A stretch of DNA of 59,830 nt from a bacterium (lineage in GTDB: Bacteria; Patescibacteriota; Minisyncoccia; JAHIHE01; JAGLIN01), in assembly GCA_030638825.1 (NCBI GenBank), contig DAOWDU010000053.1, positions 1 through 59,830 of the forward strand. Reading direction: 5' to 3'. Positions within the stretch are counted from its first letter, which is position 1, and each line of letters opens with the position of its first letter. Positions 20,231 through 39,862 of the stretch are shown one piece after another. Both the position numbers and the translations under genes were made by a program. The notes below the pieces were generated by a model. The model ran no database searches. It saw only the letters and a program-made list of their open reading frames with translations, and had not been told where the DNA came from.

Positions 20231-20232
20231 TT

Positions 20233-22260
20233 TTACCTCAATAATGTTCCGCCCCATTCAACTACCGTAAAACCACTCCTTGCTGGAGCCGCAAATAATT
20301 CCTGTTCCGGAACAGATTTAAACTTATTTAGACTTTCAGCGGTCATCATTACTCTAATTACTATTTTTGGATTTAAAGAAAAGCTGATTGGCGCGATTTT
20401 GTTAAATTCATCTTGCGTTAGAAACGAGATTTTATAATAAGGATCATCACTTAATCTTTTCAACCAGTATTCTTTAAAATCGCCGACTTCCTCTTCATTT
20501 AAACCGAGAAAAGATAATTTTTGATCAAAAAATTCATTTAGGTCTTCCTTCTTAATAACAAACCCTTCTTCTCTTCTTGGATAGTTAAGCCCAATTCCCT
20601 CCCAATATAAATAATCGTATTCCTGATTTGTTTTCAAGTCTTTTACTTTTCCATCCTGAGAAATTTCCACTTCCCAGCCCTGATTATAGTCTGGTTTCGT
20701 AAAGGTAAATCCGCCATTCGGGCTTACCTGAACATCAATTTTTATTTCTTCCTCAGGATAAAAATAAATGACTGGCTTGCACATCTCCGCCGCTGACATA
20801 AACTTTCTATTCTTGAACTGGATCCATCTTCCCAAAGGATCTTGCCAATACAAAAGAGGGCGTAAACCTATAAATTCCTCATAGCTATATTTATTTCCAT
20901 CCGTTTTTTTCCAATCCTCACTATAATAAGCAGTTGTGTTTTCGTCATTATATAACTCTTTTAATTTTTCATCGTTTATATCTTTGAATTCATAAATAGG
21001 ATCGCCATTGCTTGCTTCGCCAACTATCTTAAGTCGTTCATCAGGAGAAGATAGCTTCTTGTTATCCATAACATCAAGATAAGAACACAATGAACCGCAA
21101 CCGGCTATTCTATTATAATTATATTCTTCTTCGTTTTTATCTCCTTCATAAGGTTCGGGTTTACCTTCATTAAAAATTATTTCCAGTAGCCCATTTTCTT
21201 CGTTGACAAATGGAACCGTGAAGCTATACACAAAAACGGTATGATCTGGAAGTTCCGCGACCGCGCAGCCATTTTCGGTCAAATAAATATCGCCCATCTT
21301 TTCATCGGTAAATAATTTCTTTTCTATCTCCATTTCGGCAAAAAAACGATCTTTTATATTACCTCCCTCTATCGTATATTTTTTCTCTGGCGCAATGATT
21401 GTCTTCGGCAAATCTGTGAAACCTTCTATTTTGATATTATTCTCTTTTAAGTAAAATCTTTTCTTATTTTCCAAAAGATAATAATTAAATATATCCATCA
21501 TACTATGCTCTACTTCCAAATAAATATTTTGTCCTTCATATTGACTGCTTGCTACTTTCCCCGCTAAATAATAATCATACGCATTATATTTATCACTCTT
21601 TTCAAATTCAGTTTCTATTTTTATCAACTCTTTTTCCCAATCAACTTTTATCGTTATTACTTTTTCATCTTCGGGCAATGCCGCGTTTATTATTATTTCC
21701 TTTTTCGTTATTTTATTTTCCTGATAAGCCAAAACTGCAATAAGATTTTTTCCTTCCGTTAAACTATCGTTCTCCGCCCTTAAGACATAACTCCAGTTCA
21801 AATCTCCTTTTTTAAAATCGTCTAATAAAATTCTCTTTACTTCACTTTGTGAATTAGTAATTTCCAACTCAATTTTTTCAATCAAAAAAGAATTACTTCC
21901 TTTTATTTCATATTCGCTGGCATTTATGTTTATTTCAGTTTCAGCGGGATCTTTGATAACGAGCAAATCCGACATCAACGGATCATATCCGTTCTCCACT
22001 TCCGAACCATCTACATATCCGTCTTTGTCAGTGTCATTATCGTTCGGATTTGTTTTATGAACATAAATTTCGTCAAAGTCGCTAAGCCCGTCATCATCAC
22101 TGTCAGTATCTTTTAATTCTTCCATGTAATCTTTTGTCATTTGCACTTCTTTATTAAGAAATGAACCATAATCGCTCCCGCCAATAACGATGGCTAATAA
22201 TAGCGCAAACAGAAATAAAACCGCCAACCCCGCTAAAATAATTTTGTTTATTTTTTCCAT
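20233..22260 (-). CDS. Large secreted/anchored protein with TSP3-like Ca-binding Asp-rich repeats
   Basis: N-terminal TM helix; DTDSDDDGLSDFDE...NDNDTDKDGYVDGSE. The remainder is unassigned. Confidence 0.7.
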   Translation of the reverse strand: MEKINKIILAGLAVLFLFALLLAIVIGGSDYGSFLNKEVQMTKDYMEELKDTDSDDDGLSDFDEIYVHKTNPNDNDTDKDGYVDGSEVENGYDPLMSDLLVIKDPAETEININASEYEIKGSNSFLIEKIELEITNSQSEVKRILLDDFKKGDLNWSYVLRAENDSLTEGKNLIAVLAYQENKITKKEIIINAALPEDEKVITIKVDWEKELIKIETEFEKSDKYNAYDYYLAGKVASSQYEGQNIYLEVEHSMMDIFNYYLLENKKRFYLKENNIKIEGFTDLPKTIIAPEKKYTIEGGNIKDRFFAEMEIEKKLFTDEKMGDIYLTENGCAVAELPDHTVFVYSFTVPFVNEENGLLEIIFNEGKPEPYEGDKNEEEYNYNRIAGCGSLCSYLDVMDNKKLSSPDERLKIVGEASNGDPIYEFKDINDEKLKELYNDENTTAYYSEDWKKTDGNKYSYEEFIGLRPLLYWQDPLGRWIQFKNRKFMSAAEMCKPVIYFYPEEEIKIDVQVSPNGGFTFTKPDYNQGWEVEISQDGKVKDLKTNQEYDYLYWEGIGLNYPRREEGFVIKKEDLNEFFDQKLSFLGLNEEEVGDFKEYWLKRLSDDPYYKISFLTQDEFNKIAPISFSLNPKIVIRVMMTAESLNKFKSVPEQELFAAPARSGFTVVEWGGTLLR

Positions 22261-22416: not shown

Positions 22417-22917
22417 ATGTCAACAGAAATTATTCTAGTAGATAAAAACGATCAAGAAATCGGCGCAGGTGAGAAAATGAAAGTTCATCAAGATGGAAAG
22501 CTACATCGCTGTTTTTCTATTTTCGTTTTCAATTCCAACAACGAAATGCTCCTACAAAAAAGAGCGAAAGCAAAATATCATTGTGGCGGACTTTGGACAA
22601 ATACCTGTTGCAGCCATCCTAGAAAAGGAGAATTATTAGAAAAAGAAATTCATAAAAGATTGCAAGAAGAAATGGGTTTTGATTGCGAGCTAAAAGAAAT
22701 CGGCGGTTTTATTTACAAAGCGAAATTTGACAATGGCTTGACCGAACATGAATACGATCATGTTTTCACCGGCAAATTTGACGGTCAGCCGAAACTGAAT
22801 CCCGAAGAAGCGGATGATTACAAATGGATTGGTTTAGAAGAATTAAAAAAAGAAATCAAAAAAAATCCAGAAGATTTCACTGTCTGGTTTAAGATTGCGC
22901 TGGAGAGATTTTTTTAG
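22417..22917 (+). CDS. idi: Isopentenyl-diphosphate delta-isomerase, type 1 (Nudix fold)
   Basis: LHRCFSIFVFN, WTNTCCSHP, EHEYDHVF. Confidence 0.9.
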   Translation: MSTEIILVDKNDQEIGAGEKMKVHQDGKLHRCFSIFVFNSNNEMLLQKRAKAKYHCGGLWTNTCCSHPRKGELLEKEIHKRLQEEMGFDCELKEIGGFIYKAKFDNGLTEHEYDHVFTGKFDGQPKLNPEEADDYKWIGLEELKKEIKKNPEDFTVWFKIALERFF

Positions 22918-22998: not shown

Positions 22999-23550
22999 TT
23001 ACACTTTTTCCATACAACACTTCTTATATTTCTTCCCGCTGCCACAAGGACATTTTTCATTCCGACCAGTTTTAGTAACTCTGTTAACTGACAAAACTGA
23101 CTCGCCCATAATATCTTCTTTCAGAAAATTTTGACATTCCTGGATTGCTAAATTCAACCAAATCTTCAATTCTGGATCAGGATTTTTTTCGTATTCTTCT
23201 AAAATTTTATAGACATCAGGTCTACCCTTATGAGCTAAAATAATCAAAGCTCTTTTTTTATCTTCAATCTCCGATTTCCCAGAAAGCAAAATTTCCCGCG
23301 CCCACTCAATCTCCTCTTCAGGCATATTTAAATAATAACTCTCCGGAATTTTCTTGTGATACTCTACATATTCAACGGTCGCTCTGCCCTCTTCACTCTC
23401 AGGATCGTCAATCGCCATAACAGATCCACCCATCCCCTTTTCTTTCAACGCCATCATCAAACTAACACATTCCTCTTCCGATAAATTACCTTGATTTAAA
23501 ATGCTGATCAATTCTTCATTGCTTAGGTTGTTGAAGTTTTTGTTGGTCAT
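22999..23550 (-). CDS. SEC-C motif domain protein
   Basis: C-terminal GRNEKCPCGSGKKYKKCC. Confidence 0.75.
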   Translation of the reverse strand: MTNKNFNNLSNEELISILNQGNLSEEECVSLMMALKEKGMGGSVMAIDDPESEEGRATVEYVEYHKKIPESYYLNMPEEEIEWAREILLSGKSEIEDKKRALIILAHKGRPDVYKILEEYEKNPDPELKIWLNLAIQECQNFLKEDIMGESVLSVNRVTKTGRNEKCPCGSGKKYKKCCMEKV

Positions 23551-23791: not shown

Positions 23792-25645
23792 TTATTCATC
23801 ATTTTTATTTTCTTGATCATAAAAGTTATATAATTCATCTCTATAATATTTTTCCATAAATTCATCTAAATATGGTAAAAATAATTCATATTTTTTATCC
23901 CCCTGCATTCTTTCTTTTATAGGTAACTCTTTATCTTTCCAAATCTCTTTTGCAACATCTTCTGCAATTTGAAGACCCTTTTTATCGGTATAAGCCCCCA
24001 TTCTAATTAAATATGGAACGAACATAGGATCAACTCTTAATAAACGCAAACATTCCTCAAACTCTTCTACAGATTCCGCTTCTTCCAATTCTAACATTTT
24101 AACCTCACCTTCAAAATATATTTTATCTTGAGGATAATATTTTCCTCCCTCTTTGGGATTAAATCCTTTAAATGTTCTAAGACAATTCTTTTTGGCTATT
24201 TTTTTTGCAATCCTTTTGCTTTTTTCTTCAACTTTCTCAATTTCTTTTATTAGAACTTTTTTCTCGTTATCATTATTTGCAATATCTAATTGTTCTTTTG
24301 TATTGTTATATTCATTTTTATATAATTCTTCTCTAAGCTTTAAATTATAGATATATTTAAAAGTTTTTGCATAATTCCAACCATTTTTATATTCTCCGTT
24401 TTTATTTTTTTCTCCCCTGATTTTTTCCATAGCTAAAATATAATATGGTTCAGCGCTAATTTCAAAATCACAAAATTCTTCCTTGAGCATTTCTTTTGCT
24501 ACTCTCGCTTCGCTCCTTTTTGATATTCCTTCATTAACAACATTCCATCCTTTCCCCATCGTTCCATTAAATCCCTGCTTTTCATTATAAATATTGGTAG
24601 TCACATGCCTGCCTATTTCATGCGCAACAAGTCTCATTAACTGAAGTCCATTTTTTTCTGCGTCAGGAGGAATTAAAATAACAGGACAATCATATCCAGA
24701 ACGATTGGTGCTAACTATAATACCTGTAATATTTTTATCAATAAACACTTTATATCCAGCATCAGATAATTTTCCTTTTATAAGAGCCAACTCAAGAACA
24801 GTTTTTATACCTTGCGCATCAAACATAGTATCCTCTAATTTTTTTTCTAATTTACCTTTTTCTGGTCTGTCTTTAAAAAATTTTAATTTTTCTTTATATA
24901 TATCATTTGCGCTTTGGCACAAATTATCATTTATGTCATTATGCACAATCTTAATCTGCTCAAAAGCATTCTTGTCATTGCCATTTTTTTTATTTATGCA
25001 AAAATCTATCAAGGCATTGGATGATAGTAATAACTCATCAAGAATTTTTTTAGTGTTTTCGTTTTTACATTCAACATTTATTTCCTTTTCAATATCTTCT
25101 AATTCATTGCTTGTTTCTTTAAGTTTTTCTTCGTCAAGTTTCTCTATTTCCGGATAAATAAAGGTTGGGCACATCTCAGTATATTCTTCGTTAGTAATTT
25201 CTTGTTCCTCCTTAGAACATTTTTCAATATATTCTTCATCAGAAACTTCTTGATCCTCGTCTAGATGGTTTTTTATTTTTTCAAAAAATGCATCGAATTC
25301 TTTTTCATAATTCCTCCCTTCCTCTCCTTTCGGCTCAACAAGAGCTCTTGGACCATACGGCTTTACAATATCATTAATTCTATTTGAATATTCAATCAAT
25401 TGTTTCTTCGCTTCTCGCTTTTCTATTGTATTAACATTTATATTCAAATCTTCAACCATAAATTTTATCTCTTCGATTTTTCCCGTTTCATCTCTATTTT
25501 CTTTTTTTGAACAAGGCATTTCATCCAAAACTGCTTCTGCAATATCTTCTGTTATAATTTCATCAACAGTGTCATTAATTTCTTCTTCTGCTTTCGCTTT
25601 TTTAATTTCAGAAGCTATATCTAAATATGATGTTTCTTTTTTCAT
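23792..25645 (-). CDS. DUF1704 / MATCAP-like metallopeptidase-domain protein (paralog 1) with a long acidic N-terminal extension
   Basis: LVAHEIGRHVTTN (HExxxH), WNVVNEGISKRSE (QEGLA-equivalent), YYPQDKIYFEGEV. Confidence 0.75.
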   Translation of the reverse strand: MKKETSYLDIASEIKKAKAEEEINDTVDEIITEDIAEAVLDEMPCSKKENRDETGKIEEIKFMVEDLNINVNTIEKREAKKQLIEYSNRINDIVKPYGPRALVEPKGEEGRNYEKEFDAFFEKIKNHLDEDQEVSDEEYIEKCSKEEQEITNEEYTEMCPTFIYPEIEKLDEEKLKETSNELEDIEKEINVECKNENTKKILDELLLSSNALIDFCINKKNGNDKNAFEQIKIVHNDINDNLCQSANDIYKEKLKFFKDRPEKGKLEKKLEDTMFDAQGIKTVLELALIKGKLSDAGYKVFIDKNITGIIVSTNRSGYDCPVILIPPDAEKNGLQLMRLVAHEIGRHVTTNIYNEKQGFNGTMGKGWNVVNEGISKRSEARVAKEMLKEEFCDFEISAEPYYILAMEKIRGEKNKNGEYKNGWNYAKTFKYIYNLKLREELYKNEYNNTKEQLDIANNDNEKKVLIKEIEKVEEKSKRIAKKIAKKNCLRTFKGFNPKEGGKYYPQDKIYFEGEVKMLELEEAESVEEFEECLRLLRVDPMFVPYLIRMGAYTDKKGLQIAEDVAKEIWKDKELPIKERMQGDKKYELFLPYLDEFMEKYYRDELYNFYDQENKNDE

Positions 25646-25672
25646 ATTTTTTAAATTAGTTATTTATTTCCC

Positions 25673-27106
25673 CTAATTTTTCTTATGATTCAAGATACTT
25701 TCACGAAATTCTTTGTTATTCCATAAACGCTCCGCAATTTCCTTTATTCTATTAAAATCTTTTTCATACTTATACGCTCCTATTTTTATTAACGCTGGAA
25801 TATATTTAGCGTCAACTCTGGATAAATATAAATATTTTTCTAATTTTTCTCCAGATTTTATTTTATTCAATTCCCGAATAATAACTTCTCCTTCAAAATA
25901 AATTTTATCTTTCGGAAAATACATCCCACCTTTTTTGGGATCAAAACTCTTAAAAACTCTTACACAAATTCTCTTTGATATATCTACAGATTTTTTTTCG
26001 CAATCTTTTTCTATTACTTTTTTCTTGTTAATATTTTTCTTATTATAATATCCACAATCACATAAATATTCTTTGTAACATTTGTTGAATATATATTTAT
26101 ACACTTTATTGAAATTCCATCCCTTTTTTATTTTCTCTATCGCCAAAATATAATACATTGAAAAATCATATTCTGCGTCTACATATGAATTTTCAAGTAT
26201 TATTTTTTTAATTTCATTTTCATTTTTTTTCGCCAATCCTTCACTATAAACATTCCAGCTTCTTCCTATTTCAGCAACTAGTCCTTGCTTTTTATGATAA
26301 TAATTGGTCGTCGCATGCTTTCCTGTCTCATGGGCAATTAATTGCATAATTCTTATTCCACTAGCTTTAATTTCAGACGGTATTGAAATAACAGGACAAT
26401 TATACCTAAAATCTTTTTCATTAATTTTTATACTGGAAATTTTATCATCAATTAAAACTTTGTAATTATTTTTCAATCCAGATTTCTCTAATGCTAATTC
26501 AAAATATTTTTTAATTCCTAACGCGTCAAAATTTATTCCTTCTAATTTATTTTCCAGCGCGCTTTTCTCTGGTCTATTTTTTAGAAATTTCAATTTTTCT
26601 TTATATGCTTTATTCGCTTTATTAAATAATTCCTCACTAACATCCCCATAAATAATTTTAGAATATTTAAAAGCTTTTTTGAAATTTTTTAGTTTTAATT
26701 CCTTGAGAAAATTTACTTTAGCTAAAGCTATTTCCAAAGATTCAGAAATTATTTTATAAATATCGTCACAAGCGCATTCTTTATAAACTTTTTCTTTTAA
26801 CATACTAAGTTTCAATATTACTGTATCAACATCTTTAATATCTACTTTTTCAATTTCTGGATAATCAAAACTTGGACAATATTTATCATCTATTTTTATT
26901 TTCCTTAAAAACAGTTTAAATTCTTTCTCAAAATTTATATAGTTCCTGCCAACAGGTTGGACAAAAAATAAAATCTCGTCATATTTGCCTAATGTTTTAC
27001 AAATTTCATTCAAATATTTTTTCAACTTTTTCAATTCTAATAAATCCACCTTTTTATTTTTCTCCGCTTTTTTTATCTCTGATATTATTTTCTTAAGATT
27101 TTGCAT
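25673..27106 (-). CDS. DUF1704 / MATCAP-like metallopeptidase-domain protein (paralog 2)
   Basis: LIAHETGKHATTN (HExxxH), WNVYSEGLAKKNE, YFPKDKIYFEGEV. Confidence 0.75.
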   Translation of the reverse strand: MQNLKKIISEIKKAEKNKKVDLLELKKLKKYLNEICKTLGKYDEILFFVQPVGRNYINFEKEFKLFLRKIKIDDKYCPSFDYPEIEKVDIKDVDTVILKLSMLKEKVYKECACDDIYKIISESLEIALAKVNFLKELKLKNFKKAFKYSKIIYGDVSEELFNKANKAYKEKLKFLKNRPEKSALENKLEGINFDALGIKKYFELALEKSGLKNNYKVLIDDKISSIKINEKDFRYNCPVISIPSEIKASGIRIMQLIAHETGKHATTNYYHKKQGLVAEIGRSWNVYSEGLAKKNENEIKKIILENSYVDAEYDFSMYYILAIEKIKKGWNFNKVYKYIFNKCYKEYLCDCGYYNKKNINKKKVIEKDCEKKSVDISKRICVRVFKSFDPKKGGMYFPKDKIYFEGEVIIRELNKIKSGEKLEKYLYLSRVDAKYIPALIKIGAYKYEKDFNRIKEIAERLWNNKEFRESILNHKKN

Positions 27107-27125
27107 AATGTTTTTTATTCACTTT

Positions 27126-28019
27126 TTATTTAGAAAACATATATTGCGATGTTTTTTCTAAGTGCCATATCTCTTTCCATCCTAAATCTCCCATCCCCGC
27201 ATCTAAATATTTTGCCTTAAATTCAATAGCTCTTTCTATTTGTTGATATATAATATAGCTTCCGAGATTAAATGTATCATTTTTATTAGATCCAGTATTT
27301 ATATAATTATAGACATTATTATATTTTATAGAAAAAGAAACAGCTTCTTTTTTACCATTAATAATATAAGAAAGTAAGTGGATATCAAAATTTAATTCCA
27401 GCAAGTCATGAAACATTTCACTGCGAAATGGTTTATTAAATGATGATTTTTCTCCAAAAGATTTTTTGTTTAATTCAACTAATAAGTCCATATCGCTATA
27501 ATTATTTATGATTATTTTTGGATTTAATTGTTTAATGATCTCTACCTTTTTTTGTAATTTTTTTCTTGATCTCGCTTTAAAATTTTTAATTAGGTAATCT
27601 TCCGCATTATTAGCAACAGAAAGATTTGCAACATATTTATATTTATATACATCAAGAGATTTCGTAAATTGATCTTCGCCAATAATTTTCGCAAGTTTCA
27701 CAGAAAATGTAATTGCATCATAAAATTGTTCAATACAATCTTCGTATCCTGGCTTTATAAAAACACGATTGTCTCTCATAAAACCACCGCCAAAAAATTC
27801 TAAGTATTTTTCATCTTCATTAAACTGAAGAGGAAGTAACCCAATAACTTCTTCTTGATCTAATCCCACATAAAAATATAACGGATAGTTAAAATATTTA
27901 TAAAAACAATAGCGATAATTCCAATCATCGCAAATTACATTATTGGGACTTAATTTATCCCAAACTTTTTTTGCTTCCTCTATATTATTTACAAGCTTTA
28001 TGCTTATTCTTTTTTCCAT
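27126..28019 (-). CDS. GNAT-fold Acetyltransf_6 (CelD/BioF2/FemAB-like) protein, paralog 1
   Basis: Length ~297 aa. LEFFGGGFMRDNRVFI; C-terminal GKKEAVSFSIKYN...LDAGMGDLGWKEIWH matches the Fem/CelD-like pattern (..G.piA......Dfg.G...YK..w). Confidence 0.65.
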   Translation of the reverse strand: MEKRISIKLVNNIEEAKKVWDKLSPNNVICDDWNYRYCFYKYFNYPLYFYVGLDQEEVIGLLPLQFNEDEKYLEFFGGGFMRDNRVFIKPGYEDCIEQFYDAITFSVKLAKIIGEDQFTKSLDVYKYKYVANLSVANNAEDYLIKNFKARSRKKLQKKVEIIKQLNPKIIINNYSDMDLLVELNKKSFGEKSSFNKPFRSEMFHDLLELNFDIHLLSYIINGKKEAVSFSIKYNNVYNYINTGSNKNDTFNLGSYIIYQQIERAIEFKAKYLDAGMGDLGWKEIWHLEKTSQYMFSK

Positions 28020-28026
28020 AAAAATT

Positions 28027-28923
28027 TTATTTATAAATAAAATCGTATTGTGGTATTTTTTTAAGATGCCATCTTTCTTTCCAGCCCAAAGCTTCTAGTC
28101 CTGCATCAAATATTTTTGATTTAATTTTAACCGCTTTATCAATATTTTTATAAATATTGTAAGTTCCTAAATTGGAAATGGCTTCTTTATTAGTTCCCGC
28201 ATTTATGTAGACATAGATATCATTATATTTTATAGAAAAAGAAACAGCTTCTTTTTTACCATTGATAATATAAGAAAATAGATGAATATTAAAATTTAAT
28301 TTAAGCAAATCATGAAATGTTTCTGTACGATACGGTTTATTGAATGATGATTTTTCTCCAAATGTTTTTTTATTTAGTTCAAACATTAAATCTAAATCCT
28401 CATAATTATTTTCAATTATCATAGGATCTAACGATTCAATTGATTTTATTTTTTTATGCAACCCGTACCTAGTTTTCGCTTTAAAATTTTGAAATAAATA
28501 ATCATCAACATCTTTTATTATAGATAGGTCTGCTATATATTTTTGTACAGAAACATTAAAACTTTTTGTAAATTGATCTTGACCAAAAATATGAATAATC
28601 CTTACAGGTATTGTAATCGCATTATAAAATTGTTTAATACAATCTTTATATTCTGGTTTTATAAATACACGATTGTCTTTCATAAAACCACCACCAAAAA
28701 ACTCTAAGTATTTTTCATCTTCGTTATATTGAAGAGGAAGCAATCCAACAATTTCTCCCTTGCTTAGTCCCACATAAAAATATAGAGGATAGTCGAAATA
28801 TTTATAGAAACAATAGCGATAATTCCAGTCATCGCAAAGAAAATTGTTTGGACTTAATTTATTCCAAATTTTTTTTGCTTTTTCTATATCATTTACAATT
28901 TCTATGTTTATTTTTTTTTCCAT
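28027..28923 (-). CDS. GNAT-fold Acetyltransf_6 (CelD/BioF2/FemAB-like) protein, paralog 2
   Basis: Collinear with 27126-28019. Shared blocks: DDWNYRYCFYKYF, EDEKYLEFFGGGFM, SYIINGKKEAVSFSIKYN. Confidence 0.65.
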   Translation of the reverse strand: MEKKINIEIVNDIEKAKKIWNKLSPNNFLCDDWNYRYCFYKYFDYPLYFYVGLSKGEIVGLLPLQYNEDEKYLEFFGGGFMKDNRVFIKPEYKDCIKQFYNAITIPVRIIHIFGQDQFTKSFNVSVQKYIADLSIIKDVDDYLFQNFKAKTRYGLHKKIKSIESLDPMIIENNYEDLDLMFELNKKTFGEKSSFNKPYRTETFHDLLKLNFNIHLFSYIINGKKEAVSFSIKYNDIYVYINAGTNKEAISNLGTYNIYKNIDKAVKIKSKIFDAGLEALGWKERWHLKKIPQYDFIYK

Positions 28924-28958
28924 AAAAATTTTATCTTCTTATTCATAAATTAACATCT

Positions 28959-30251
28959 TCATTTAACTTTAATTTTTATTATATCTTTTATTTTTTCTAT
29001 ATCTCTATATAGAATGTTTTTATTATAACTATTCAATACAATTAATAAAACATATATGTGACCATCTCTTGAATATCCACAATCATCTCCATTTTTTTTT
29101 ATTTGATTGTATCTCAAAAAAGATTTCAATTTTTTCAATTTTTCAATGCCCTGAATTGAAACAAGTTTTCCTTCTTTTTCTGGAAATATCTCAAAAACTG
29201 CTGTGTGTGATTTTATTTTTTTGGGGATAATTAATTTCTTCCCCATTTTATTTAAAAAATCATTTTCTTGATGTTTAATACCAAAAGATAATTTTAGCAT
29301 TTCATTTCTGTATCCACCTGGTCTAGTTTGAAGTTCAACAATTTTCCATTTTCCTTTCTTCGTTCTCATAAGTTCTATATGAACCGTGACTGCGCTAGGT
29401 TTTGTTGATTTTATAGATTTTTTTGCTACCACTTGAGCTTTTTTTTCTTCTTTTTCGCCTATATTTGTTGGAGTTAATCTATAATAATTAAAAAAATCAT
29501 CAATGCCTATATCCTTCCCCGTAACAACTCTAACAATTGGCGTAAAATATATTTTTCCTTTTGCATTTATATAAGCATCAATTGAATAAAGATCTCCTTC
29601 CATATATTCTTCAGCTAAAATCATTGGCTTGCTTTCAGAATTAACTTTTTTATAAACTTTTTCTATTTTTTTAAAACTATGTTTTAAATTATTTTTCAGC
29701 TCTTCACTATTATCTGATTTAATAACTAACCTGCTTTTTGTAAGATTAAGCGGTTTTGTTATGCAAGGAAATCCAATTTTCTTTGCAATTTCCTTAGCTT
29801 TTTGAGACTCATTAATCAACATAAATTTAGGCGATATTTCAGGATAATATCTTTTAAATCTTTTTCTCATCTCAAACTTGCTATTACAAATTTTAAGAGC
29901 CTTCACTGTCGGCATATTGACACTTGGTAATAATTTTACCAATCTCGCATACAAAGGCATCCACGATTCAAAATAACAAAAAACGACGACGACTTTATTT
30001 CTAATTGGCATTATTACTTTTTTAATTTCTACTATATTTTTTGTATCACATCTTAAAATAAAATCTAGTCTTTTCTCAACGCCTTTTTGCTTGACCTTTT
30101 TATTTAAATCGAGATTATGAGATGTTAAAAGAGCAGTTCTAAATTTTCTCTTTTGAGATCTTTCAAAGTCTTCTACATCATCAATATTAATATTAAAAAC
30201 ATCCCCAACAAATAATATAATGTTTCTTTCTGTTTTCTTTACTTTTTTCAT
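28959..30251 (-). CDS. ATP-grasp domain ligase, paralog 1
   Basis: ITKPLNLTKSRLV, LAEEYMEGDLYSIDAY, VHIELMRTKKGKWKIVELQTRPGG. Confidence 0.75.
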   Translation of the reverse strand: MKKVKKTERNIILFVGDVFNINIDDVEDFERSQKRKFRTALLTSHNLDLNKKVKQKGVEKRLDFILRCDTKNIVEIKKVIMPIRNKVVVVFCYFESWMPLYARLVKLLPSVNMPTVKALKICNSKFEMRKRFKRYYPEISPKFMLINESQKAKEIAKKIGFPCITKPLNLTKSRLVIKSDNSEELKNNLKHSFKKIEKVYKKVNSESKPMILAEEYMEGDLYSIDAYINAKGKIYFTPIVRVVTGKDIGIDDFFNYYRLTPTNIGEKEEKKAQVVAKKSIKSTKPSAVTVHIELMRTKKGKWKIVELQTRPGGYRNEMLKLSFGIKHQENDFLNKMGKKLIIPKKIKSHTAVFEIFPEKEGKLVSIQGIEKLKKLKSFLRYNQIKKNGDDCGYSRDGHIYVLLIVLNSYNKNILYRDIEKIKDIIKIKVK

Positions 30252-30320
30252 TTTTTTAAATTTATTTTATAAAATTTTACTTAACGATAATCCTCACCCG
30301 CCTCTTCATTTTCTTGTCAA

Positions 30321-30360
30321 GTTGTTAAATAATTAACAATTCTGTTAATTAACTAACAAC
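30321..30360. repeat. Imperfect inverted repeat in the only sizeable gap of the ligase cluster
   Basis: gttgttaaataattaac (30321-30337) and gttaattaactaacaac (30344-30360), directly after the stop of 30362-31645. Confidence 0.6.
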
Positions 30361-30361
30361 T

Positions 30362-31645
30362 TTATTTAACAACAATCCTAACAATCTCCCCTATTCTCTC
30401 CAAATCCCCTTCAAAAACTTTTCTATTTTTACCATTCAAAACCACCTGCAAAACATAAATATATCCATCCCGAGAAAACCCGCACATTTCACCAATTTTC
30501 TTCGCCTGCTCATATCTCACAAACGATTTTAATTTCCTCATTTTTTCAATGCCTTTAACAGAGACTAATTTACCTTCCCGCTCTGGGAAAATTTCAAATA
30601 CTGCTGTGTAAGATTTTACTTTTTTAGGAATAATTGGTTTTTTGTCCATTCTGTTTAGAAAATCATTTTCATAATGTTTGATGCCGTAAGATAATTTTAG
30701 CATTTCATTTCTATAGCCGCCAGGTCTTGTTTGGAGTTCTATAATTTTCCAAACGCCAGTTTTAGTTTTCGTCAATTCTATATGCAAAGTAATTGAAGTC
30801 GGACCAGTCGCTTTAACCGCTTTTCTAGCGACTATCTGCGCTTTTTTTTCTTCGTTGGAATTTAGATTAGCTGGCGTTAATCTGTAGTAATTAAAAAAAT
30901 CATCAATCCCAATATCTTTTCCCGTCACAACTCTAACGATCGGCGTGAAATAAATCTTGCTTTTAGAATTGACATAAGCGTCAATGGAATATAAATCGCC
31001 TTCCAAATATTCTTCCGCCAAAACCAACGGCTCGCTTTCGGAATGAACTTTTTTATAAACGCTTTGGATTTTGCTAAAAGTACTTTTTAAATTGCTTTTC
31101 AATTCTTCTAAATTATTTGACTTGACAACTAATCTACTTTTTGTTAGATTCAACGGCTTTGTAATACAAAGAAATTTTATTTTCTTTGCTATAATTTCAT
31201 AATCATTTAAATTTTTTACCAGCATGAACTTCGGTGTAATTTCTGGATATAGTTTGATAAACTTTTTCCTCATCTCAAACTTGCTATTGCAAATCTTTAA
31301 TGATTTCACTGTCGGCATATTAACATTTGGCAATAATTTAACCAACCTTGCGTACAAAGGCATCCACGATTCAAAATAGCAAAAGACAATTATAATTTCA
31401 TCTTTAATCGGCTTGATTATTTTCGCGATACTTTTAATATCTTTCGTATCACACCTCAAAACAAAATCAAATCTTTCCTCCATTCCTTTTTGCTTCGGCG
31501 GTTTTTCGTTTAGATTGATTTTAGGAGAAGTTATAATAGCTGTCCTAAATTTTTTATTCTGCGATTTTTCAAAACTCCTGACTTCGTCAAGATTGCTATT
31601 ATATGCGCTTCCCAAAAAAAGAATTATATTTTTGTTTTTTAGCAT
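30362..31645 (-). CDS. ATP-grasp domain ligase, paralog 2
   Basis: Collinear with 28959-30251. Shares an identical 20-residue run, VFCYFESWMPLYARLVKLLP, plus LAEEYLEGDLYSIDAY and IELQTRPGGYRNEMLKLS. Confidence 0.75.
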   Translation of the reverse strand: MLKNKNIILFLGSAYNSNLDEVRSFEKSQNKKFRTAIITSPKINLNEKPPKQKGMEERFDFVLRCDTKDIKSIAKIIKPIKDEIIIVFCYFESWMPLYARLVKLLPNVNMPTVKSLKICNSKFEMRKKFIKLYPEITPKFMLVKNLNDYEIIAKKIKFLCITKPLNLTKSRLVVKSNNLEELKSNLKSTFSKIQSVYKKVHSESEPLVLAEEYLEGDLYSIDAYVNSKSKIYFTPIVRVVTGKDIGIDDFFNYYRLTPANLNSNEEKKAQIVARKAVKATGPTSITLHIELTKTKTGVWKIIELQTRPGGYRNEMLKLSYGIKHYENDFLNRMDKKPIIPKKVKSYTAVFEIFPEREGKLVSVKGIEKMRKLKSFVRYEQAKKIGEMCGFSRDGYIYVLQVVLNGKNRKVFEGDLERIGEIVRIVVK

Positions 31646-31663
31646 ATTATTATTTGATATTTT

Positions 31664-34498
31664 TTACCACTCCCCAAACAACTTCCGATAAACTTCCAGA
31701 TCCCCACTTAAATTATATTTTATTTTCTCCTTATCTATTATCCCCAATTCTATGAATAAAGGCAATAAATAAGGATCAATTTTCGCTATAATTAGATAAT
31801 CTTCTAAATTATTATCGCGCATTTTTTTCGCTAAAATCTCGCCCTCTAAATACATTTTATCTTTTGGAAAATACGCTTTGCCTTTTGACAGACTCTCTCT
31901 AAATCCGCGAAAGATTCTTTTGCAGATAAATAACGCTTCTTTCTTTGAAATTTCTTCGGCGTTGTACTCGTCAATATTTTTTGCTTGATATTCTTTTATT
32001 TTTAATTCAGAGATATAATCAAATGCCTGATGAAAATTAAACCCGCTTTTTATTTTGTTCATCGCTAAAATATAATATGGATTTGGCAGTTCTTTTTCCG
32101 CGCCGAAAATGTTGTTGACAAAATCATTGCTAATTATTCTCGCAAAACCCTCTTGATAAAGTTCATAATCCCTGCCAAAAATAACTCCGCCAAATCCTAA
32201 GGCGTTATTATTGCTGTTTGTTTTCAAATGAATAACTTCATGAATAATCTTCCTCGCTAAATCCAAACCGTTTGTTTTCTTTTTTGTAGGAATAACAATT
32301 GTTGGAGAATCATATTTTGTTGAATTAAATTTTACATCAATCTGACTAACATCTTTATCAAGTGCAACGCTCCATTCCGATAATTCCATAATTTTTAAAA
32401 CTTCTTCAAATTTGTTTTTTACTTGCCTAGAACTAAATGTTTTTTCTTTTAAATTGATAAGCTGCTCATCATCCTGTTCCTGATGCTCTAATAATTTCTG
32501 ATAAACCCCTTCCGCTTTTTTTACTAAATCGTTATTTATATCTCCATAAATTTTCTTAGCGTACTCAAAAGATTTCGCCTCGTCTTTTTGTTTTACGGAC
32601 ATTAAAAAATTTATTTTATTCCTGCTTAAAGACGCCGCTTCTTGAATTATCTGTTTTACAAAATCATTATTTTCAAATTTTACGCTCTCGCAAATATTAT
32701 CTATGCTTTTCAAGGCCGCTTTAAATTGCTCTTCTCTGAATTTTTTTAGAACTGGGTATTTAAACACTGGATTATATTCTCTTTCGTTTTCTTTTTCTAA
32801 AAACAAATTTAGTTCTGCGAAAGAACTTCTTTTTTCAGATCCGGAGGGAACAATGAAAGAAAAGACATCGTTAAATTCCCCAGCCACTTTTTCTATTTCT
32901 TCCGCATAAAATATAACTTTTTCTTTAGCAAATGAATTTTCTTCCTGTTTATTTTTTTCCGCTTTTAAAATTGCTTTTATAGTTTCTTTAATTTCTCTTT
33001 TTTTATTATCATTTCCTAATGATTGAACTAAACGAGATTGAACCTTGCTCGGATCCACCAAAAACCTCCCCAAATCTTTCCGTCCGATGATCACTGGAAA
33101 TTCCAAATTACTTCTGTCCGTCACAGACATTTTTGAAATTACTGAAACGCCAGATAATATTATTTTCATTTTAATCAGCAAACGATAAGAAACTCCGTGG
33201 CTGGATTTGATAACAACTGTGTCAAAATCATCTCCCCATTTTTCTAATCTATCTTTTATTTTTTCATCCAAACTTTCTTTCGTAGAATTATTTTCTATTT
33301 CTAATTTTTTAACAACTTCCTGGAATTCATCTATCACCTCTTCGTAGCCCAATTTTCTCGCCAGCTCCTCATCAATTGATGATCTATCTGCTCCCGTATC
33401 TATTTTAGCTTTTAACTCTATTTCTTCTGCTTTCATTTTTTCACTGTTTTTATCATCTACATCTTTATTTTCTTTATTCATAATTCCTAATTCATAATTC
33501 ATAATTCCTATCGTCTCAATAATCCCCAAAATTTGCTTCCCAGAAATATCTTCAATTTCTTCTTCAATTTCTCCGCCAAATAAATCCTGCGCGATTCTAA
33601 TCCCGTGCGTTTCATTTTTTACTTTTAAGCCGCTTACTTTTTTTAATCTATATTTCAGCGGCGCCAGATTAGCAATCTGGATGGAAAGTCCAGCATGCGC
33701 GTTTATTTCCAAAACGACTGGTCCCCGCTCACTGTCAATCGCAATATCAACGCCGATATATCCTAACTTAGAAACCTCTTGGCACTTAATCGCAATTTCC
33801 AAAATTTCTCGCCAGTAGGGAATTTTAATTCCTTTCAAAGTTAATTTTGTATCGGGATGTTTTTCAATCAAAAAATCTCTCATCACGGCATTAGTCGTCA
33901 CGCCTGTGGCAATATCCACGCCCAATCCTATTCCACCCATATGCAAATTCGCTTTTCCGCCAGATTCTTTTGTCGGCAAACGAAGCATCGCCATCACAGG
34001 AACTTTATTATAGACAATTACTCTGATATCAGGAATTCCTTTGTAAGAATATGGCTTGAGAATTTTTAAAAGTTTAATTCTCTCTTCAAAAAAAGCGATA
34101 TCGGAAGCTCCTGAAAAAGAATAGAATCCTTCAAAAATATCCATAATATGATTTCGCAAATCCTTGATCGTCATTTTTCCGCCTTCTGTTGAAACCCAGC
34201 TTTGATCTTTTTTCTGTCCAAAAATTACTTTGATCCCTTTCCCGCCGCTTCCGCAATTCGGCTTCAAAACAAAACTTTTCGGCAAGTCGTCCCATTTAAA
34301 AACTTCCAGCTCTTTTCTGTTTCTAATAACGCCATAGATTTTAGGAACTGGAATTCCAGCCTTAAAAAGCGCTTCCTTGCTCCGCAGTTTATTATTCGCA
34401 AGATGAATCGCGCCCTGAAGATTATTTGGTCTGATATAAGAAAGGTTTCTCGCGTTCATCCCGAGGAGACCTTTGCTGTTTTTGAGGAAAGTAAACAT
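31664..34498 (-). CDS. Triple-domain fusion: RimK-related alpha-L-glutamate-ligase-like ATP-grasp + DUF785 retropepsin-like domain + DUF1704/MATCAP-like metallopeptidase
   Basis: aa 1-~310: LLGMNARNLSYIRPNN, VLKPNCGSGGKGI, GIPDIRVIVYNKVPVMAMLRLPT..SGGKANLHMGGIGLGVD, GVDIAIDSERGPVVLEINAHAGL. aa ~355-490: AKIDTGADRSSI...SVTDRSNLEFPVIIGRKDLGRFLVDPS. aa ~520-944: IIHEVIHLKTN, YQEGFARI, YFPKDKMYLEGEI. Confidence 0.85.
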   Translation of the reverse strand: MFTFLKNSKGLLGMNARNLSYIRPNNLQGAIHLANNKLRSKEALFKAGIPVPKIYGVIRNRKELEVFKWDDLPKSFVLKPNCGSGGKGIKVIFGQKKDQSWVSTEGGKMTIKDLRNHIMDIFEGFYSFSGASDIAFFEERIKLLKILKPYSYKGIPDIRVIVYNKVPVMAMLRLPTKESGGKANLHMGGIGLGVDIATGVTTNAVMRDFLIEKHPDTKLTLKGIKIPYWREILEIAIKCQEVSKLGYIGVDIAIDSERGPVVLEINAHAGLSIQIANLAPLKYRLKKVSGLKVKNETHGIRIAQDLFGGEIEEEIEDISGKQILGIIETIGIMNYELGIMNKENKDVDDKNSEKMKAEEIELKAKIDTGADRSSIDEELARKLGYEEVIDEFQEVVKKLEIENNSTKESLDEKIKDRLEKWGDDFDTVVIKSSHGVSYRLLIKMKIILSGVSVISKMSVTDRSNLEFPVIIGRKDLGRFLVDPSKVQSRLVQSLGNDNKKREIKETIKAILKAEKNKQEENSFAKEKVIFYAEEIEKVAGEFNDVFSFIVPSGSEKRSSFAELNLFLEKENEREYNPVFKYPVLKKFREEQFKAALKSIDNICESVKFENNDFVKQIIQEAASLSRNKINFLMSVKQKDEAKSFEYAKKIYGDINNDLVKKAEGVYQKLLEHQEQDDEQLINLKEKTFSSRQVKNKFEEVLKIMELSEWSVALDKDVSQIDVKFNSTKYDSPTIVIPTKKKTNGLDLARKIIHEVIHLKTNSNNNALGFGGVIFGRDYELYQEGFARIISNDFVNNIFGAEKELPNPYYILAMNKIKSGFNFHQAFDYISELKIKEYQAKNIDEYNAEEISKKEALFICKRIFRGFRESLSKGKAYFPKDKMYLEGEILAKKMRDNNLEDYLIIAKIDPYLLPLFIELGIIDKEKIKYNLSGDLEVYRKLFGEW
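33481..33508. repeat. Heptanucleotide tandem array, 4 x TAATTC[CA] (28 nt), in the inter-domain linker of the fusion gene
   Basis: taattcctaattcataattcataattcc; translated as IGIMNYELGIMN on the minus strand. Confidence 0.95.
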
Positions 34499-34519
34499 AA
34501 TTAAATTGGATTAAGAAAT

Positions 34520-35167
34520 TTATTTATCAACATTCTTCATAACCTCCCTAAACCTCAAATACTCGCTCAAACGAATTCCAGTCCAGCGGCCTAAGAAGAT
34601 ATTGATAACAAATAATAACAAAATATATTCTGGATGATCAAGAACTAAATTTTTGAAAACATCCCAGATGATAAAATAATAGCAGGCAATGGAAATAACA
34701 AGCGTTTCAATAGAAAGAACTGCTGCTGTTCTAAATCCTTTTTCAACTTGAGTGGAAATAAATTTTTCTATTAAAGTTATCAAAATTAAAATCGGCAAAA
34801 TAGAAGTTGCCGCTAGTCCAGTTTTATTTAAATACCCGCCAACTGCCAGTAGCGCTAAAATCGCTAAACTAATCACCGTCAAAACAATCGCCATTCTCGG
34901 CATATACAATAAGCGAAAATTTCTCAAGATATACCTCACTGCTGTTCCAGTTATAAAAATAACTAAGAAAATAGCTATTCCATATTTAATTCCAATCGCC
35001 CAAAAAGCGAAAGTCAAGACTAATGGCGTATAAATACCAAACGATTTGACTCCAATCAACTGCCGAAACGCCGCAATCAAAGTAGCGACAAAAGGCAACG
35101 CGAGAATTAAATAAATTGTTTCGATACTCACGCCTTGGGAAGCGATGAGTTGGATTATGTTGGACAT
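34520..35167 (-). CDS. 7TM membrane protein of the type usually fused to an inactive transglutaminase (7TM_transglut-like)
   Basis: Seven hydrophobic helices in 215 aa. It sits immediately upstream of, and co-directional with, the RimK-related ligase, as in the known 3-gene cassette. Confidence 0.65.
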   Translation of the reverse strand: MSNIIQLIASQGVSIETIYLILALPFVATLIAAFRQLIGVKSFGIYTPLVLTFAFWAIGIKYGIAIFLVIFITGTAVRYILRNFRLLYMPRMAIVLTVISLAILALLAVGGYLNKTGLAATSILPILILITLIEKFISTQVEKGFRTAAVLSIETLVISIACYYFIIWDVFKNLVLDHPEYILLLFVINIFLGRWTGIRLSEYLRFREVMKNVDK

Positions 35168-35847: not shown

Positions 35848-36618
35848 TTATTCCGGCAAATTCTTTCCTTCCAATTCTTTCCACAAAGAATCAAACATAA
35901 ATTTAACTAACAAATAAATCGTTTCGTTTTTAATCAAAATTGAGGAGTACGATTTTTGGAGTGAAATAAGAGCAACTTTGTTATTATAAAGAAGCATTCC
36001 TGAATCAAAATTTTTAACTGTCGGCAAAAATCTTATCTCTCGAAAATCAGTATCTCCTTCACGATATAATTTTTTGTTATGAGCGTGATAATCAGTAATA
36101 ACATATGCTTTAGTGCCTCCAATCTGGCGGCGTTTTTTTGTTACATCAGAAAGAATGCGTGATAATCCAAGATGTTCATAGGTTTTTCCAGGAAATATGA
36201 CATGGAGATCTTTTCGGCTTTTTAATATATTTTCTATGATATTCCAAGTACCTTCTATTCCCTGAAAATGACGAATTTCTTCTTTTGATTCCGTAGTCTT
36301 ATTTTTCAAAATTCTTTCAAGCTGTGGCAAAATATCTTTTATCCTCTTTTCTTCTTTCTCAATTTCCTTTTTCTTTATTTGAGCAATCTTAAGTAATTTT
36401 TCTGGTTTTTCGGCAAAAAATATTTTCTTATTTTTTTGAATTATTTCGCCTACCAGTCCTATTTGCTTTAATCTTTCCAAAACTAAATAAACTGTCGTTC
36501 TTTTAACACCAGTTTCAATAGCAATATTCTGAGCAGAAATAGAGCCAAGCTTAAGAATAGCCAAGTATATTTTAATCTCCTTTTCTTTCAATCCAATTTG
36601 TTTTAAGCTTTTAAACAT
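35848..36618 (-). CDS. TrmB-family HTH transcriptional regulator
   Basis: GLKEKEIKIYLAILKLGSISAQNIAIETGVKRTTVYLVLERLKQIGLV. Confidence 0.75.
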   Translation of the reverse strand: MFKSLKQIGLKEKEIKIYLAILKLGSISAQNIAIETGVKRTTVYLVLERLKQIGLVGEIIQKNKKIFFAEKPEKLLKIAQIKKKEIEKEEKRIKDILPQLERILKNKTTESKEEIRHFQGIEGTWNIIENILKSRKDLHVIFPGKTYEHLGLSRILSDVTKKRRQIGGTKAYVITDYHAHNKKLYREGDTDFREIRFLPTVKNFDSGMLLYNNKVALISLQKSYSSILIKNETIYLLVKFMFDSLWKELEGKNLPE

Positions 36619-39292: not shown

Positions 39293-39862
39293 CTATCCTC
39301 TCATCTTAACCTCATACTCAATCTGCTCTATCTTCCTTAAATTATTTTTCGCCTGATCGTATTTAGTTCGCAGATAACCAGTCATATCAAACTTCACTAA
39401 TTCCGCCATAATCTCGTTGATGATTTTTTTTATTTTATCTACCTCATCAAAATTACCGGCCGTCGCTTGGTTAATCGCTTGACGAACTAATTCGCCAGTC
39501 AAATCACAAAGTCCGCCGAGATAACTGTCTATGTTTAAATTGATGCCTTTAATTTTATCAACTTTCTCTCCCGCCATCACAAAATAAAACATTTTCGCTT
39601 CCACATATTCCTCCGCTCCCGCCCGATACGATCCTTCTTTAGAAACTCGCTGATGCCCAAATTCTTTTTCCAACTTCTGCAACGATTTTTCTATCTCCGT
39701 TAATTCTGTTTTTGCTTTACTCAAATCGCCGCGATGCAAAGAGAAAATCGTTCTCTTAGAACTATGCAAAACAACATCAGACAATTTAATAATCTGCCTT
39801 CTCTCATTTTCTCCCTTGTCATAATCTTTTTTTAGTTTTTGAATGAATTTTTTATTAATCAT
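39293..39862 (-). CDS. Translin-family protein
   Basis: All-helical ~190 aa protein with the YLGGLCDLTGELVRQAI motif. Confidence 0.6.
   Translation of the reverse strand: MINKKFIQKLKKDYDKGENERRQIIKLSDVVLHSSKRTIFSLHRGDLSKAKTELTEIEKSLQKLEKEFGHQRVSKEGSYRAGAEEYVEAKMFYFVMAGEKVDKIKGINLNIDSYLGGLCDLTGELVRQAINQATAGNFDEVDKIKKIINEIMAELVKFDMTGYLRTKYDQAKNNLRKIEQIEYEVKMRG

Follow-up and report, generated by a model that had tools for sequence, protein, structure and literature searches.

A Patescibacterial cluster of amino-acid ligases and MATCAP-like peptidases: a possible enlarged relative of the Rlo and Rim systems

What is the function of a bacterial gene cluster in which several amino-acid ligases are encoded side by side with several peptidases? 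We have studied such a cluster in contig DAOWDU010000053.1 of the assembly GCA_030638825.1, from a bacterium of the lineage Patescibacteriota; Minisyncoccia; JAHIHE01; JAGLIN01. The whole stretch of DNA that was analyzed, 59,830 nt, is called the window. The cluster comprises eight co-directional open reading frames (ORFs) on the minus strand at positions 23792-35167, which we have named g1 to g8 in the order of transcription. A preliminary description of this DNA had proposed a system that writes and erases amino-acid tails. Its account of the eight genes and their coordinates matches the ORF list exactly, and the intergenic gaps do lie between 7 and 110 nt (21, 18, 110, 35, 7, 19 and 27 nt, from g1 to g8). 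The reading that we prefer is that the locus could be an enlarged, fully cytoplasmic Patescibacterial version of a coupled amino-acid ligase/peptidase system of the Rlo/Rim type, making a peptide. We hold it tentatively, with a probability of about 45%.

Domain families were called using profile scans with Pfam and NCBIfam, and folds were taken from AlphaFold2 (AF2) models compared with the PDB by Foldseek. The family assignments of the preliminary description all survive these searches; g8 scores below threshold and is a paralog of g7. Because orthologs with 60-85% identity are found in the same order in independent metagenomes and metagenome-assembled genomes (MAGs), we take the eight genes to be real and conserved. 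The window's own contig was itself recovered, together with close orthologs, in several independent metagenomes and MAGs. The nearest MAG locus is that of GCA_023137595.1 (Candidatus Pacebacteria), and the named homologs come from Patescibacteria (Pacebacteria, Andersenbacteria, Minisyncoccia and Parcubacteria). The cluster contains three tandem pairs of paralogs, with identities of 70% (g3/g4), 67% (g5/g6) and 39% (g7/g8). The g1 protein contains multiple hydrophobic segments and is the only protein of the cluster to do so; g2 to g8 have neither a signal peptide nor a hydrophobic segment, and these enzymes are therefore probably cytoplasmic.

The invariant heart of the locus is an Rlo-like pair, comprising a seven-transmembrane (7TM) protein and a ligase-protease fusion, of which the window is the most elaborate known variant. 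The first gene, g1 (34520-35167, minus strand), encodes a membrane protein of 215 aa that matches PF14402 7TM_transglut in Pfam (E = 8.8e-27). RloB is defined by a 7TM region together with a periplasmic inactive transglutaminase domain, and g1 has the former only: it is the counterpart of RloB's C-terminal 7TM half without the ectodomain, and scores 76 bits (cut-off 900) with the profile NF052267, of whose 508 positions it matches 313-507. At their cytoplasmic C terminus the 7TM proteins of the window and of the related loci L002-L104 share a highly conserved motif, GKWTGLRxxEYxRFR, after which comes a short, basic and variable tail; the last residue of this tail is not conserved among the loci compared. 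The ligase fusion may dock at this motif.

The second gene, g2 (31664-34498, minus strand), encodes a triple fusion of 944 aa, in which a RloC/RimK-like ATP-grasp ligase is followed by a retropepsin-like DUF785 domain and a MATCAP-like metallopeptidase. Homologs of the same architecture are 61-99% identical. The ligase domain (aa 17-289; 33632-34450) is matched by ATPgrasp_ST (PF14397, 2.5e-74; 250 bits against a cut-off of 31.4) and by TIGR02291 (1.2e-89), where a score of 300.4 bits falls just under the equivalog cut-off of 314.2. It lies further below the thresholds of the RimK family TIGR00768 (59.8 bits against 143.4) and of PRK10446 (21 bits against 331). The Mg/ATP residues D251, E264 and N266 are invariant in an alignment of 19 fusion proteins, and E264-x-N266 (ExN) aligns with the ExN of the RimK structures 4IWX and 5ZCT. 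The DUF785 domain (aa 352-487; 33038-33445) matches Zn_protease/DUF785 (PF05618, 5.6e-9), the NCBIfam retropepsin models RloA1 to RloA3 (RloA3 1.6e-10) and, in the PDB, the DUF785 protein 9G59 (E = 1.9e-4); its catalytic motif DTGA, at residue 367, is kept in its clade. The third domain (aa 571-892; 31823-32788) matches MATCAP/DUF1704 (PF08014, 8.4e-12).

The preliminary description regarded the cassette of 7TM, ligase and DUF785 genes as uncharacterized. This is outdated: the triad of 7TM, TIGR02291 and DUF785 proteins is the rloABC operon of Pseudomonas aeruginosa, for which genetics have been published (mBio 2025, PMC12239564). RloA, a retropepsin-like protease that is secreted, cuts stretches of eight or more glutamates in vitro, RimB likewise cutting such stretches, while RloB consists of a 7TM region and an inactive transglutaminase, and RloC is an ATP-grasp protein (PMC12239564). 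Deletion of rloB or rloC suppresses the hypo-osmotic lethality of a triple rloA mutant. As the substrate the authors weigh post-translationally polyglutamylated proteins or free poly-alpha-glutamate, and they found no genome-encoded poly-Glu substrate. In the related Rim system glutamates are added to and removed from ribosomal protein S6 (RpsF) at its C terminus by RimK and RimB, RimK makes poly-alpha-Glu, and a modulation of glutamate/polyglutamate pools by RimB has been proposed. A survey in the same study placed RloB almost only in Proteobacteria, with 96% of hits (PMC12239564).

How far does our locus resemble these systems? It shares with rloABC the same three families (PF14402, TIGR02291/PF14397 and PF05618 with DTGA), adjacent and co-directional. 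However, its 7TM protein has no transglutaminase-like ectodomain, and whereas RloA is a stand-alone secreted protein with a signal peptide, the retropepsin-like domain is here internal to a cytoplasmic fusion that has none. In addition, rloABC lacks the three MATCAP-like domains, two L-amino-acid ligase (LAL)-type ligases and two Fem-like transferases of the window, and while RloB is nearly confined to Proteobacteria, the 7TM module described here is phylum-wide in Patescibacteria. The locus thus resembles Rlo/Rim in its workings, yet is not a member of Rlo by the defining features, because there is no transglutaminase ectodomain and the protease is not secreted. Like RimK/RimB (with RimA; PMC4741518, PMC11957791), it couples a cytoplasmic RimK-like ATP-grasp enzyme with a counteracting DUF785 protease, and the ExN motif aligns. 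But g2 falls below the curated threshold of the RimK family, the locus adds a membrane partner, extra ligases and extra peptidases, and RpsF lies outside the window. The proposal of writing and erasing nevertheless has a real precedent for two of the families, in RimK/RimB.

To follow the core across species, one genome per species was scanned, and the best 80 loci were annotated with local profile searches. Relatives of the core are present in at least 597 species-level genomes. All of the 80 annotated loci are Patescibacterial, although some of the taxonomic labels are doubtful. Many binchicken third-party annotation (TPA) MAGs labeled Bdellovibrionales/Micavibrio, and single ones labeled Bathyarchaeia or Fimivivens, carry the typical Patescibacterial locus of ruvC, 7TM gene and fusion (L024, L027, L028, L035, L036 and similar loci), and those labels are probably wrong. 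The 7TM gene adjoins the ligase gene in 78 of these best 80 loci and ruvC lies upstream in 67. ATPgrasp_ST is fused to DUF785 in all but one, typically in a protein of 465-500 aa, and the 79 fusions keep D[TS]G in 76 cases (DTGA in 75) and ExN in 75. Three-quarters of the loci (59/80) have one to three extra small ATP-grasp genes of the RimK/GARS_A-like kind. A MATCAP-like gene is found in 15 (2 fused, 13 separate), so that the number of MATCAP-like genes has no one-to-one match with that of accessory ligases (15/80 against 59/80 loci). LAL-type or GNAT genes occur in none of the 80.

Is the association of ligase and MATCAP-like peptidase more than proximity? Several architectures recur. Triple fusions of 916-973 aa are found in the closest relatives, and those of ATPgrasp_ST+DUF785 measure about 520-560 aa. 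Gracilibacteria, Peregrinibacteria and other Patescibacteria contribute a large set of ATPgrasp_ST-MATCAP fusions, about 800 aa long; in these fusions the middle DUF785-like segment is often degenerate, with D[TS]G in 7 of the 13 sampled. In L013 and L014 the 7TM gene, the ATPgrasp_ST+DUF785 gene, a stand-alone MATCAP-like gene and a small ATP-grasp gene are separate neighbors. Since the two activities are fused in some genomes and encoded by adjacent separate genes in others, comparison of the sequences provides strong evidence that the functional link between the RimK-like ligase and the MATCAP-like peptidase is real. The minimal form, found in genomes of large or complete size, is a two-gene unit alone, with a 7TM protein bearing PKD domains next to the 800-aa fusion; extracellular PKD domains are thus carried by the 7TM partner in other lineages.

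We then consider the MATCAP-like peptidases themselves. MATCAP is a gluzincin with a degenerate HExxxH motif (PMC13522474). The window has two stand-alone copies, g7 (25673-27106, minus strand; 477 aa; PF08014 9.3e-13, TIGR02421 (QEGLA) 4.5e-9) and the longer g8 (23792-25645, minus strand; 617 aa), in addition to the C-terminal domain of g2. Their PF08014 scores are 45.2 (g2), 48.3 (g7) and 22.7 bits (g8), with a cut-off of 27. The sub-threshold g8 shares 39% identity with g7 across 511 residues (E = 3e-95); this paralogy, together with the shared H-E-x3-H and downstream Glu, indicates that g8 is a true member of the MATCAP family despite its Pfam score. The motif reads HETGKH at residue 259 of g7, with SEGLA downstream, and HEIGRH at residue 342 of g8, with NEGIS downstream, and the H, E, H and downstream E are invariant in an alignment of 15 sequences that includes both. 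The 800-aa fusions have HEIETH...QEGLA. The g2 copy has HEVIH at residue 753 and QEGFA downstream, which is HExxH, one residue shorter than HExxxH. The g2 motif is clade-wide HE[VI][IV]H...QEG[FLIV]A, with the canonical HExxH spacing.

A sequence search with g7 against the PDB gave no match, and the clade profile found only a marginal hit to YbeY; comparison of folds was therefore needed. The AF2 model of g7 has a predicted local distance difference test (pLDDT) score of 92.5. Its five best PDB matches are all human MATCAP (7Z5G/7Z6S), with E = 1e-5 to 3e-5, a probability of 1.00, a template-modeling (TM) score of 0.55-0.57 and about 15% identity. The next-best match, an M32 carboxypeptidase, has E = 0.05. 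With the gluzincin motif present in all three copies, the placing of DUF1704 in the MATCAP family by the preliminary description is borne out. Among 1.84 billion representatives searched with the g7/g8 profile the subfamily is small, with 663 clusters (at 50% identity) at E <=1e-3 and 49 at 1e-30. A metagenome scan with the same profile gave only 8 loci, and statistics on the full cluster accordingly rest on few independent examples. In the literature we found no functional description of bacterial DUF1704/MATCAP homologs, nor of this cluster. Orthologs of g8 are present in L011, L012, L017 and L101.

The g8-type proteins have an N-terminal extension of about 170 aa with 24-32% Asp+Glu. The C terminus of g8 reads ...NKNDE, and those of its homologs ...KDEE, ...KNEE, ...KGEE or ...NNNE; a terminal Glu is present in about 11 of 17 distinct g8-type homologs (from the set P0130-P0149, L002, L004, L011, L015, L017, L099 and L101). 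The acidic tail of g8 could be an acceptor tail, or could merely reflect the composition of an AT-rich genome.

In the tubulin cycle too an ATP-grasp ligase (TTL) is paired with a metallopeptidase of MATCAP fold, and g7 and g8 keep HExxxH. There, however, the likeness stops. The ligase in our locus is RimK/RloC-like, and the Pfam scan gave no TTL-family match; there is no tubulin here, g7 has the low identity to MATCAP given above, and the g2 copy has HExxH. We would regard the parallel as an analogy of enzyme pairing, not an orthology of the cycle.

The fusion gene and the stand-alone peptidases are separated by four accessory ligases. Two are of LAL type: g3 (30362-31645, minus strand; 427 aa; ATP-grasp_4 4.5e-15), termed LAL-1, and g4 (28959-30251, minus strand; 430 aa; ATP-grasp_4 1e-18). 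LAL_C2 is detected in g3 at 1.3e-4, with 22.6 bits against the Pfam cut-off of 29.4. The g3 protein is 83-86% identical to the first LAL gene product in L002, L004 and L101, and we assign it as the conserved LAL-1 ortholog of the sister loci; g4 appears to be a recent duplicate of g3, not an ortholog of LAL-2. The best PDB match of g4 is the L-amino-acid ligase BL00235 (3VOT), at E = 5.9e-6. With the known LALs (BL00235, YwfE/BacD, RizA/RizB), g3 and g4 share ATP-grasp_4 and a putative LAL_C2-like C-terminal domain, but this likeness is distant (E 6e-6). To our knowledge LALs have not been associated with MATCAP-like peptidases or 7TM_transglut proteins.

The other two, g5 (28027-28923, minus strand; 298 aa; Acetyltransf_6 8e-7) and g6 (27126-28019, minus strand; 297 aa; Acetyltransf_6 1e-8), are Fem-like proteins of tandem-GNAT type. 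Pfam assigns both to Acetyltransf_6 (PF13480) alone, no FemAB family appearing in the scan, and the profile of the GNAT clade gave only spurious hits to SidK in the PDB, with no solved Fem protein matched by sequence. The AF2 model of g6 (pLDDT 96.2) is best matched by FemX (7Z5Y, 4II9 and 1NE9; E = 3e-11 to 2e-10, TM 0.65-0.68), followed by the peptide synthases Sbb17/Sba18 (9WQX/9WQY; TM 0.66-0.71) and then by A-PGS/MprF. Tandem GNATs that use acetyl-CoA fit the model less well (TM 0.45-0.56). On the basis of the model g6 is probably an aminoacyl-tRNA-dependent transferase, in agreement with the earlier assignment to the Fem type. While g6 appears to share the tandem-GNAT fold with the Fem-type enzymes (FemX/FemA, Sbb17/Sba18, A-PGS/MprF), the genomic partner of g5 and g6 is an LAL-type ATP-grasp enzyme, not Mur ligases. 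Judged by families, motifs and folds, the locus thus has five enzymes that plausibly form peptide bonds, by three kinds of mechanism, together with four peptidase domains of two kinds, much as the preliminary description had supposed in counting up to five ligases with trimming peptidases.

Three other comparisons were set aside. A graspetide, i.e., a peptide made by the ribosome and modified after translation (RiPP), was rejected, there being no conserved small ORF in or beside the cluster and the ATP-grasp enzymes being RimK-like and LAL-like. A role in anti-phage defense was rejected since PADLOC gave no hits for the eight proteins. The Klebsiella ATP-grasp protein CfmP is a TupA-like enzyme and is not a relevant comparator.

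Is the eight-gene set a unit? It is not: its composition is not conserved, and the accessory ligases vary from locus to locus. The sets of L011, L012 and L017 are like that of the window, with between one and three GNAT genes; in L101 we find LAL-1, a divergent LAL-2 and single GNAT and MATCAP-like genes. L002 and L003 share a set comprising LAL-1, LAL-2, a single MATCAP-like gene, a third ATP-grasp gene, a 315-aa protein of no assigned family and a MurL-like epimerase; in L002 the last three (17200-20558; a GARS_A/RimK-like ATP-grasp protein, the 315-aa protein and the MurL-like peptide epimerase) stand in the place of the GNAT pair, and the 315-aa protein is homologous to a DUF3541 protein in L010. 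In L004 the contig ends after LAL-1, LAL-2, a pair of MATCAP-like genes and two further small ATP-grasp genes; L100 has two LAL genes and two small ATP-grasp genes, and L010 (10361-17881) a DegT aminotransferase and five further ATP-grasp genes. GNAT genes are present in only about five loci. In L018 a double-LAL fusion is directly followed by a GNAT homolog, with no 7TM or MATCAP gene nearby; the LAL+GNAT pair is on this evidence a separable module. The survey therefore upholds part of the earlier idea that the genes act as a system, namely the adjacency of 7TM gene and fusion and the link of ligase to MATCAP-like peptidase, while the set of eight does not stand. Similarly, no characterized system of this composition was found in the literature, as the preliminary description had said, but the core is already known as rloABC.

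How might these proteins work together? From the families, the motifs, the two modeled folds, the cytoplasmic location, the fusion and fission of domains and the adjacency of the genes, we infer a chemistry, an order of steps, a trimming and an export through the 7TM protein, as follows. The RloC/RimK-like domain of g2 would build an alpha-linked, probably glutamate-rich chain at the inner face of the membrane. The LAL-type g3 and g4 would then add residues from free amino acids, and the Fem-like g5 and g6 residues from aminoacyl-tRNA. By analogy with RloA/RimB, long acidic chains would be cut by the retropepsin-like domain as an endopeptidase, and the three MATCAP-like gluzincins would act as carboxypeptidases, so that the peptidases may trim the chain, strip its cap or release it, and in this way set its length and end-group. 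Lastly, the RloB-like 7TM protein would receive the product or export it to the cell envelope. The composition of the product would differ between lineages because the set of accessory ligases differs.

We think it most likely that the acceptor is a non-ribosomal peptide or an envelope precursor, and not a protein encoded by the genome. The variation of the accessory ligases is more in keeping with a modular pathway that builds peptides than with a fixed regulatory switch that writes and erases, and we prefer a biosynthetic pathway because the number and type of ligases vary freely, because LAL and aminoacyl-tRNA-type enzymes are present, and because a peptide epimerase or a sugar aminotransferase occurs in sister loci. 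The LAL-type and Fem-type enzymes suggest a small peptide or envelope precursor no less than they suggest a protein C terminus. Delivery to the envelope is suggested by the 7TM partner, which is invariant and in other lineages bears PKD domains.

A number of observations weigh against this reading. No gene for a product, acceptor or carrier was found in the window, nor were tRNA genes, and there is no conserved small ORF in the 241-nt and 110-nt gaps or in the flanks. The gene for a SEC-C protein (22999-23550) is ruled out as a conserved substrate, as it is absent from the orthologous loci. The earlier remark that no substrate gene is obvious is thus sustained by the small-ORF, tRNA and SEC-C checks. 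RimK modifies the C terminus of a protein, and the only known substrate of MATCAP is a protein tail; the fusion of ligase and hydrolase could instead mean a regulatory cycle on a protein. The specificity for glutamate derives from distant homology alone (TIGR00768 and TIGR02291 being below their cut-offs), and the export by the 7TM protein is pure inference, this protein having no solved homolog in the PDB. The zinc motif of the g2 MATCAP domain is one residue short, and catalytic activity is only predicted. Lastly, the LAL+GNAT module occurs also without 7TM or MATCAP genes and g4 to g7 are low in G+C, so that the cluster could be a juxtaposition of two pathways.

The alternative nearest to the original proposal is a reversible addition and removal of amino-acid tails at the C terminus of a cytoplasmic protein, a regulation like that of RimK/RimB or TTL/MATCAP. 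RimK/RimB is a demonstrated pair of ligase and retropepsin acting on the RpsF C terminus, and MATCAP removes the C-terminal residue of a protein, with a motif that g7 and g8 share and a fold that the g7 model shares; all of the enzymes are probably cytoplasmic, and ligase and hydrolase lie in one polypeptide. The acidic tails of g8-type proteins, mostly ending in Glu, give a weak hint in the same direction. Yet neither the cluster nor its immediate surroundings contain a conserved gene for a candidate substrate, the downstream SEC-C gene not being conserved. Such a target is also at odds with what LAL-type ligases and Fem-like transferases are usually known to act on, namely free amino acids, small molecules and cell-wall precursors, not protein termini. 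Nor would one expect the number and kind of ligases to shift freely among close relatives if a switch acted on one conserved target, and a purely cytoplasmic cycle of post-translational modification leaves the invariant 7TM partner unexplained. We therefore regard this explanation as unlikely. A bolder form of it would make the g2-type fusion a prokaryotic enzyme that both writes and erases tails on a protein C terminus, the target being the Glu-terminated tail of g8 or a membrane or ribosomal protein. The TTL/MATCAP pairing would then descend from, or recapitulate, an ancient bacterial partnership, and the LAL and Fem-like ligases would write a lineage-specific code of several residues. This we consider a long shot.

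Are we instead looking at two adjacent pathways, the phylum-wide core and an independent LAL+Fem-like module (g3-g6) that was inserted or duplicated in this clade? The module stands alone in L018, where the double-LAL fusion and GNAT gene have no 7TM or MATCAP neighbor, and LAL and GNAT genes are absent from all of the 80 species-representative core loci. The G+C content of g4-g7 (25673-30251) is 24.8-26.5%, while that of g1-g3 and the flanks is 31-39% and that of the whole window 32.4%; this low-G+C accessory module may be younger or of different origin. The recent duplication that seems to have produced g4 from g3, and the varying copy number of the GNAT genes, fit this too. But in every locus of the clade with enough sequence the LAL genes lie between the fusion gene and the MATCAP-like genes, on one strand and with gaps of tens of bases. 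Genes of g7/g8 type are nearly always found beside accessory ligases (LAL in most; a small ATP-grasp gene in L013/L014, L102 and L105), and LAL-1 is strongly conserved (83-86%) in that context. A chance neighborhood of two pathways is in our judgment decidedly unlikely. Very improbable, finally, is a reserve of amino acids in polymer form that an auxotrophic ultra-small symbiont would make and mobilize, after the manner of cyanophycin synthetase and cyanophycinase. Patescibacteria lack most amino-acid biosynthesis, genes for synthesis and degradation are adjacent here, RimK-type enzymes make poly-alpha-Glu and RimB is a proposed modulator of pools. However, the weak NCBIfam similarities to the ATP-grasp regions of cyanophycin synthetase are far below cut-off, so much variation among ligases would not be expected of a store, and neither the invariant 7TM partner, with its PKD ectodomains elsewhere, nor the aminoacyl-tRNA-type transferases would be explained.

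If the preferred Rlo/Rim-like reading is true, non-ribosomal peptides would here be made by a new logic, in which peptide-bond formation by ATP-grasp, LAL and aminoacyl-tRNA-dependent enzymes is combined with enzymes dedicated to trimming. For the question of what RloC-type ligases make, and on what acceptor, the locus offers a compact set of soluble proteins for reconstitution, in which the same Rlo core is fused to a protease, stripped of its periplasmic parts and surrounded by more ligases and peptidases. The recurrent fusion to a ligase is the first strong functional context for the bacterial DUF1704/MATCAP homologs. The pair of 7TM protein and ligase-protease, beside ruvC in hundreds of species-level genomes, extends systems of the Rlo type to a phylum of minimal bacteria. 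Given how few genes these organisms have, the pair probably matters to the Patescibacterial envelope or physiology.

The flanks of the cluster were also analyzed. The upstream flank carries, on the strand of the cluster, yebC, a TrmB-like gene and ruvC. The TrmB-like regulator gene (35848-36618, minus strand), between yebC and ruvC, overlaps the start of ruvC by 37 nt at its 3' end; it is missing from that spot in L002, L007 and L017, where yebC adjoins ruvC, and could be a local regulator. A scan for promoters and terminators was uninformative in this AT-rich DNA, with 91 sites where 72 were expected.

Downstream of the cluster are the SEC-C gene, an opposite-strand NUDIX gene, a 675-aa membrane-anchored protein, a Memo+PGA_cap fusion, a major facilitator superfamily (MFS) transporter and glycosyltransferases. 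The NUDIX protein (22417-22917, plus strand) has the motif WTNTCCSHP, which we take to be typical of type-1 isopentenyl-diphosphate isomerase; an opposite-strand NUDIX gene stands at the 3' end of the cluster in several relatives whose contigs are long enough (L002, L003, L011-L017). At 18413-22260 (minus strand) the gene for the 675-aa protein, with Asp-rich calcium-binding-like repeats, overlaps by 25 nt that for a fusion of 614 aa, which has an N-terminal transmembrane segment and Memo-like and PGA_cap domains (CapA, a poly-gamma-glutamate capsule protein). This gene pair is kept downstream of the cluster in L011. It may be by chance, or not, that a CapA-like protein is encoded near a glutamate-ligase-like cluster.

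Synteny with L011 is broken by a restriction-modification island at 10487-15151 (minus strand), which contains a type I specificity subunit (Methylase_S), a 606-aa HSDR_N+N6_Mtase/Eco57I-like fusion, a DUF3800 protein and an unassigned ORF of 214 aa. On the other side of the cluster, the gene at 39293-39862 (minus strand) encodes a 189-aa protein of the Translin family (PF01997, 6e-26), a family that is mainly eukaryotic and archaeal. Beyond it, at 40313-42832 (minus strand), is the gene for an 839-aa protein with three lamin-tail domains and a C-terminal OB-fold (tRNA_anti-codon), which is kept in L002 (3112-5664).

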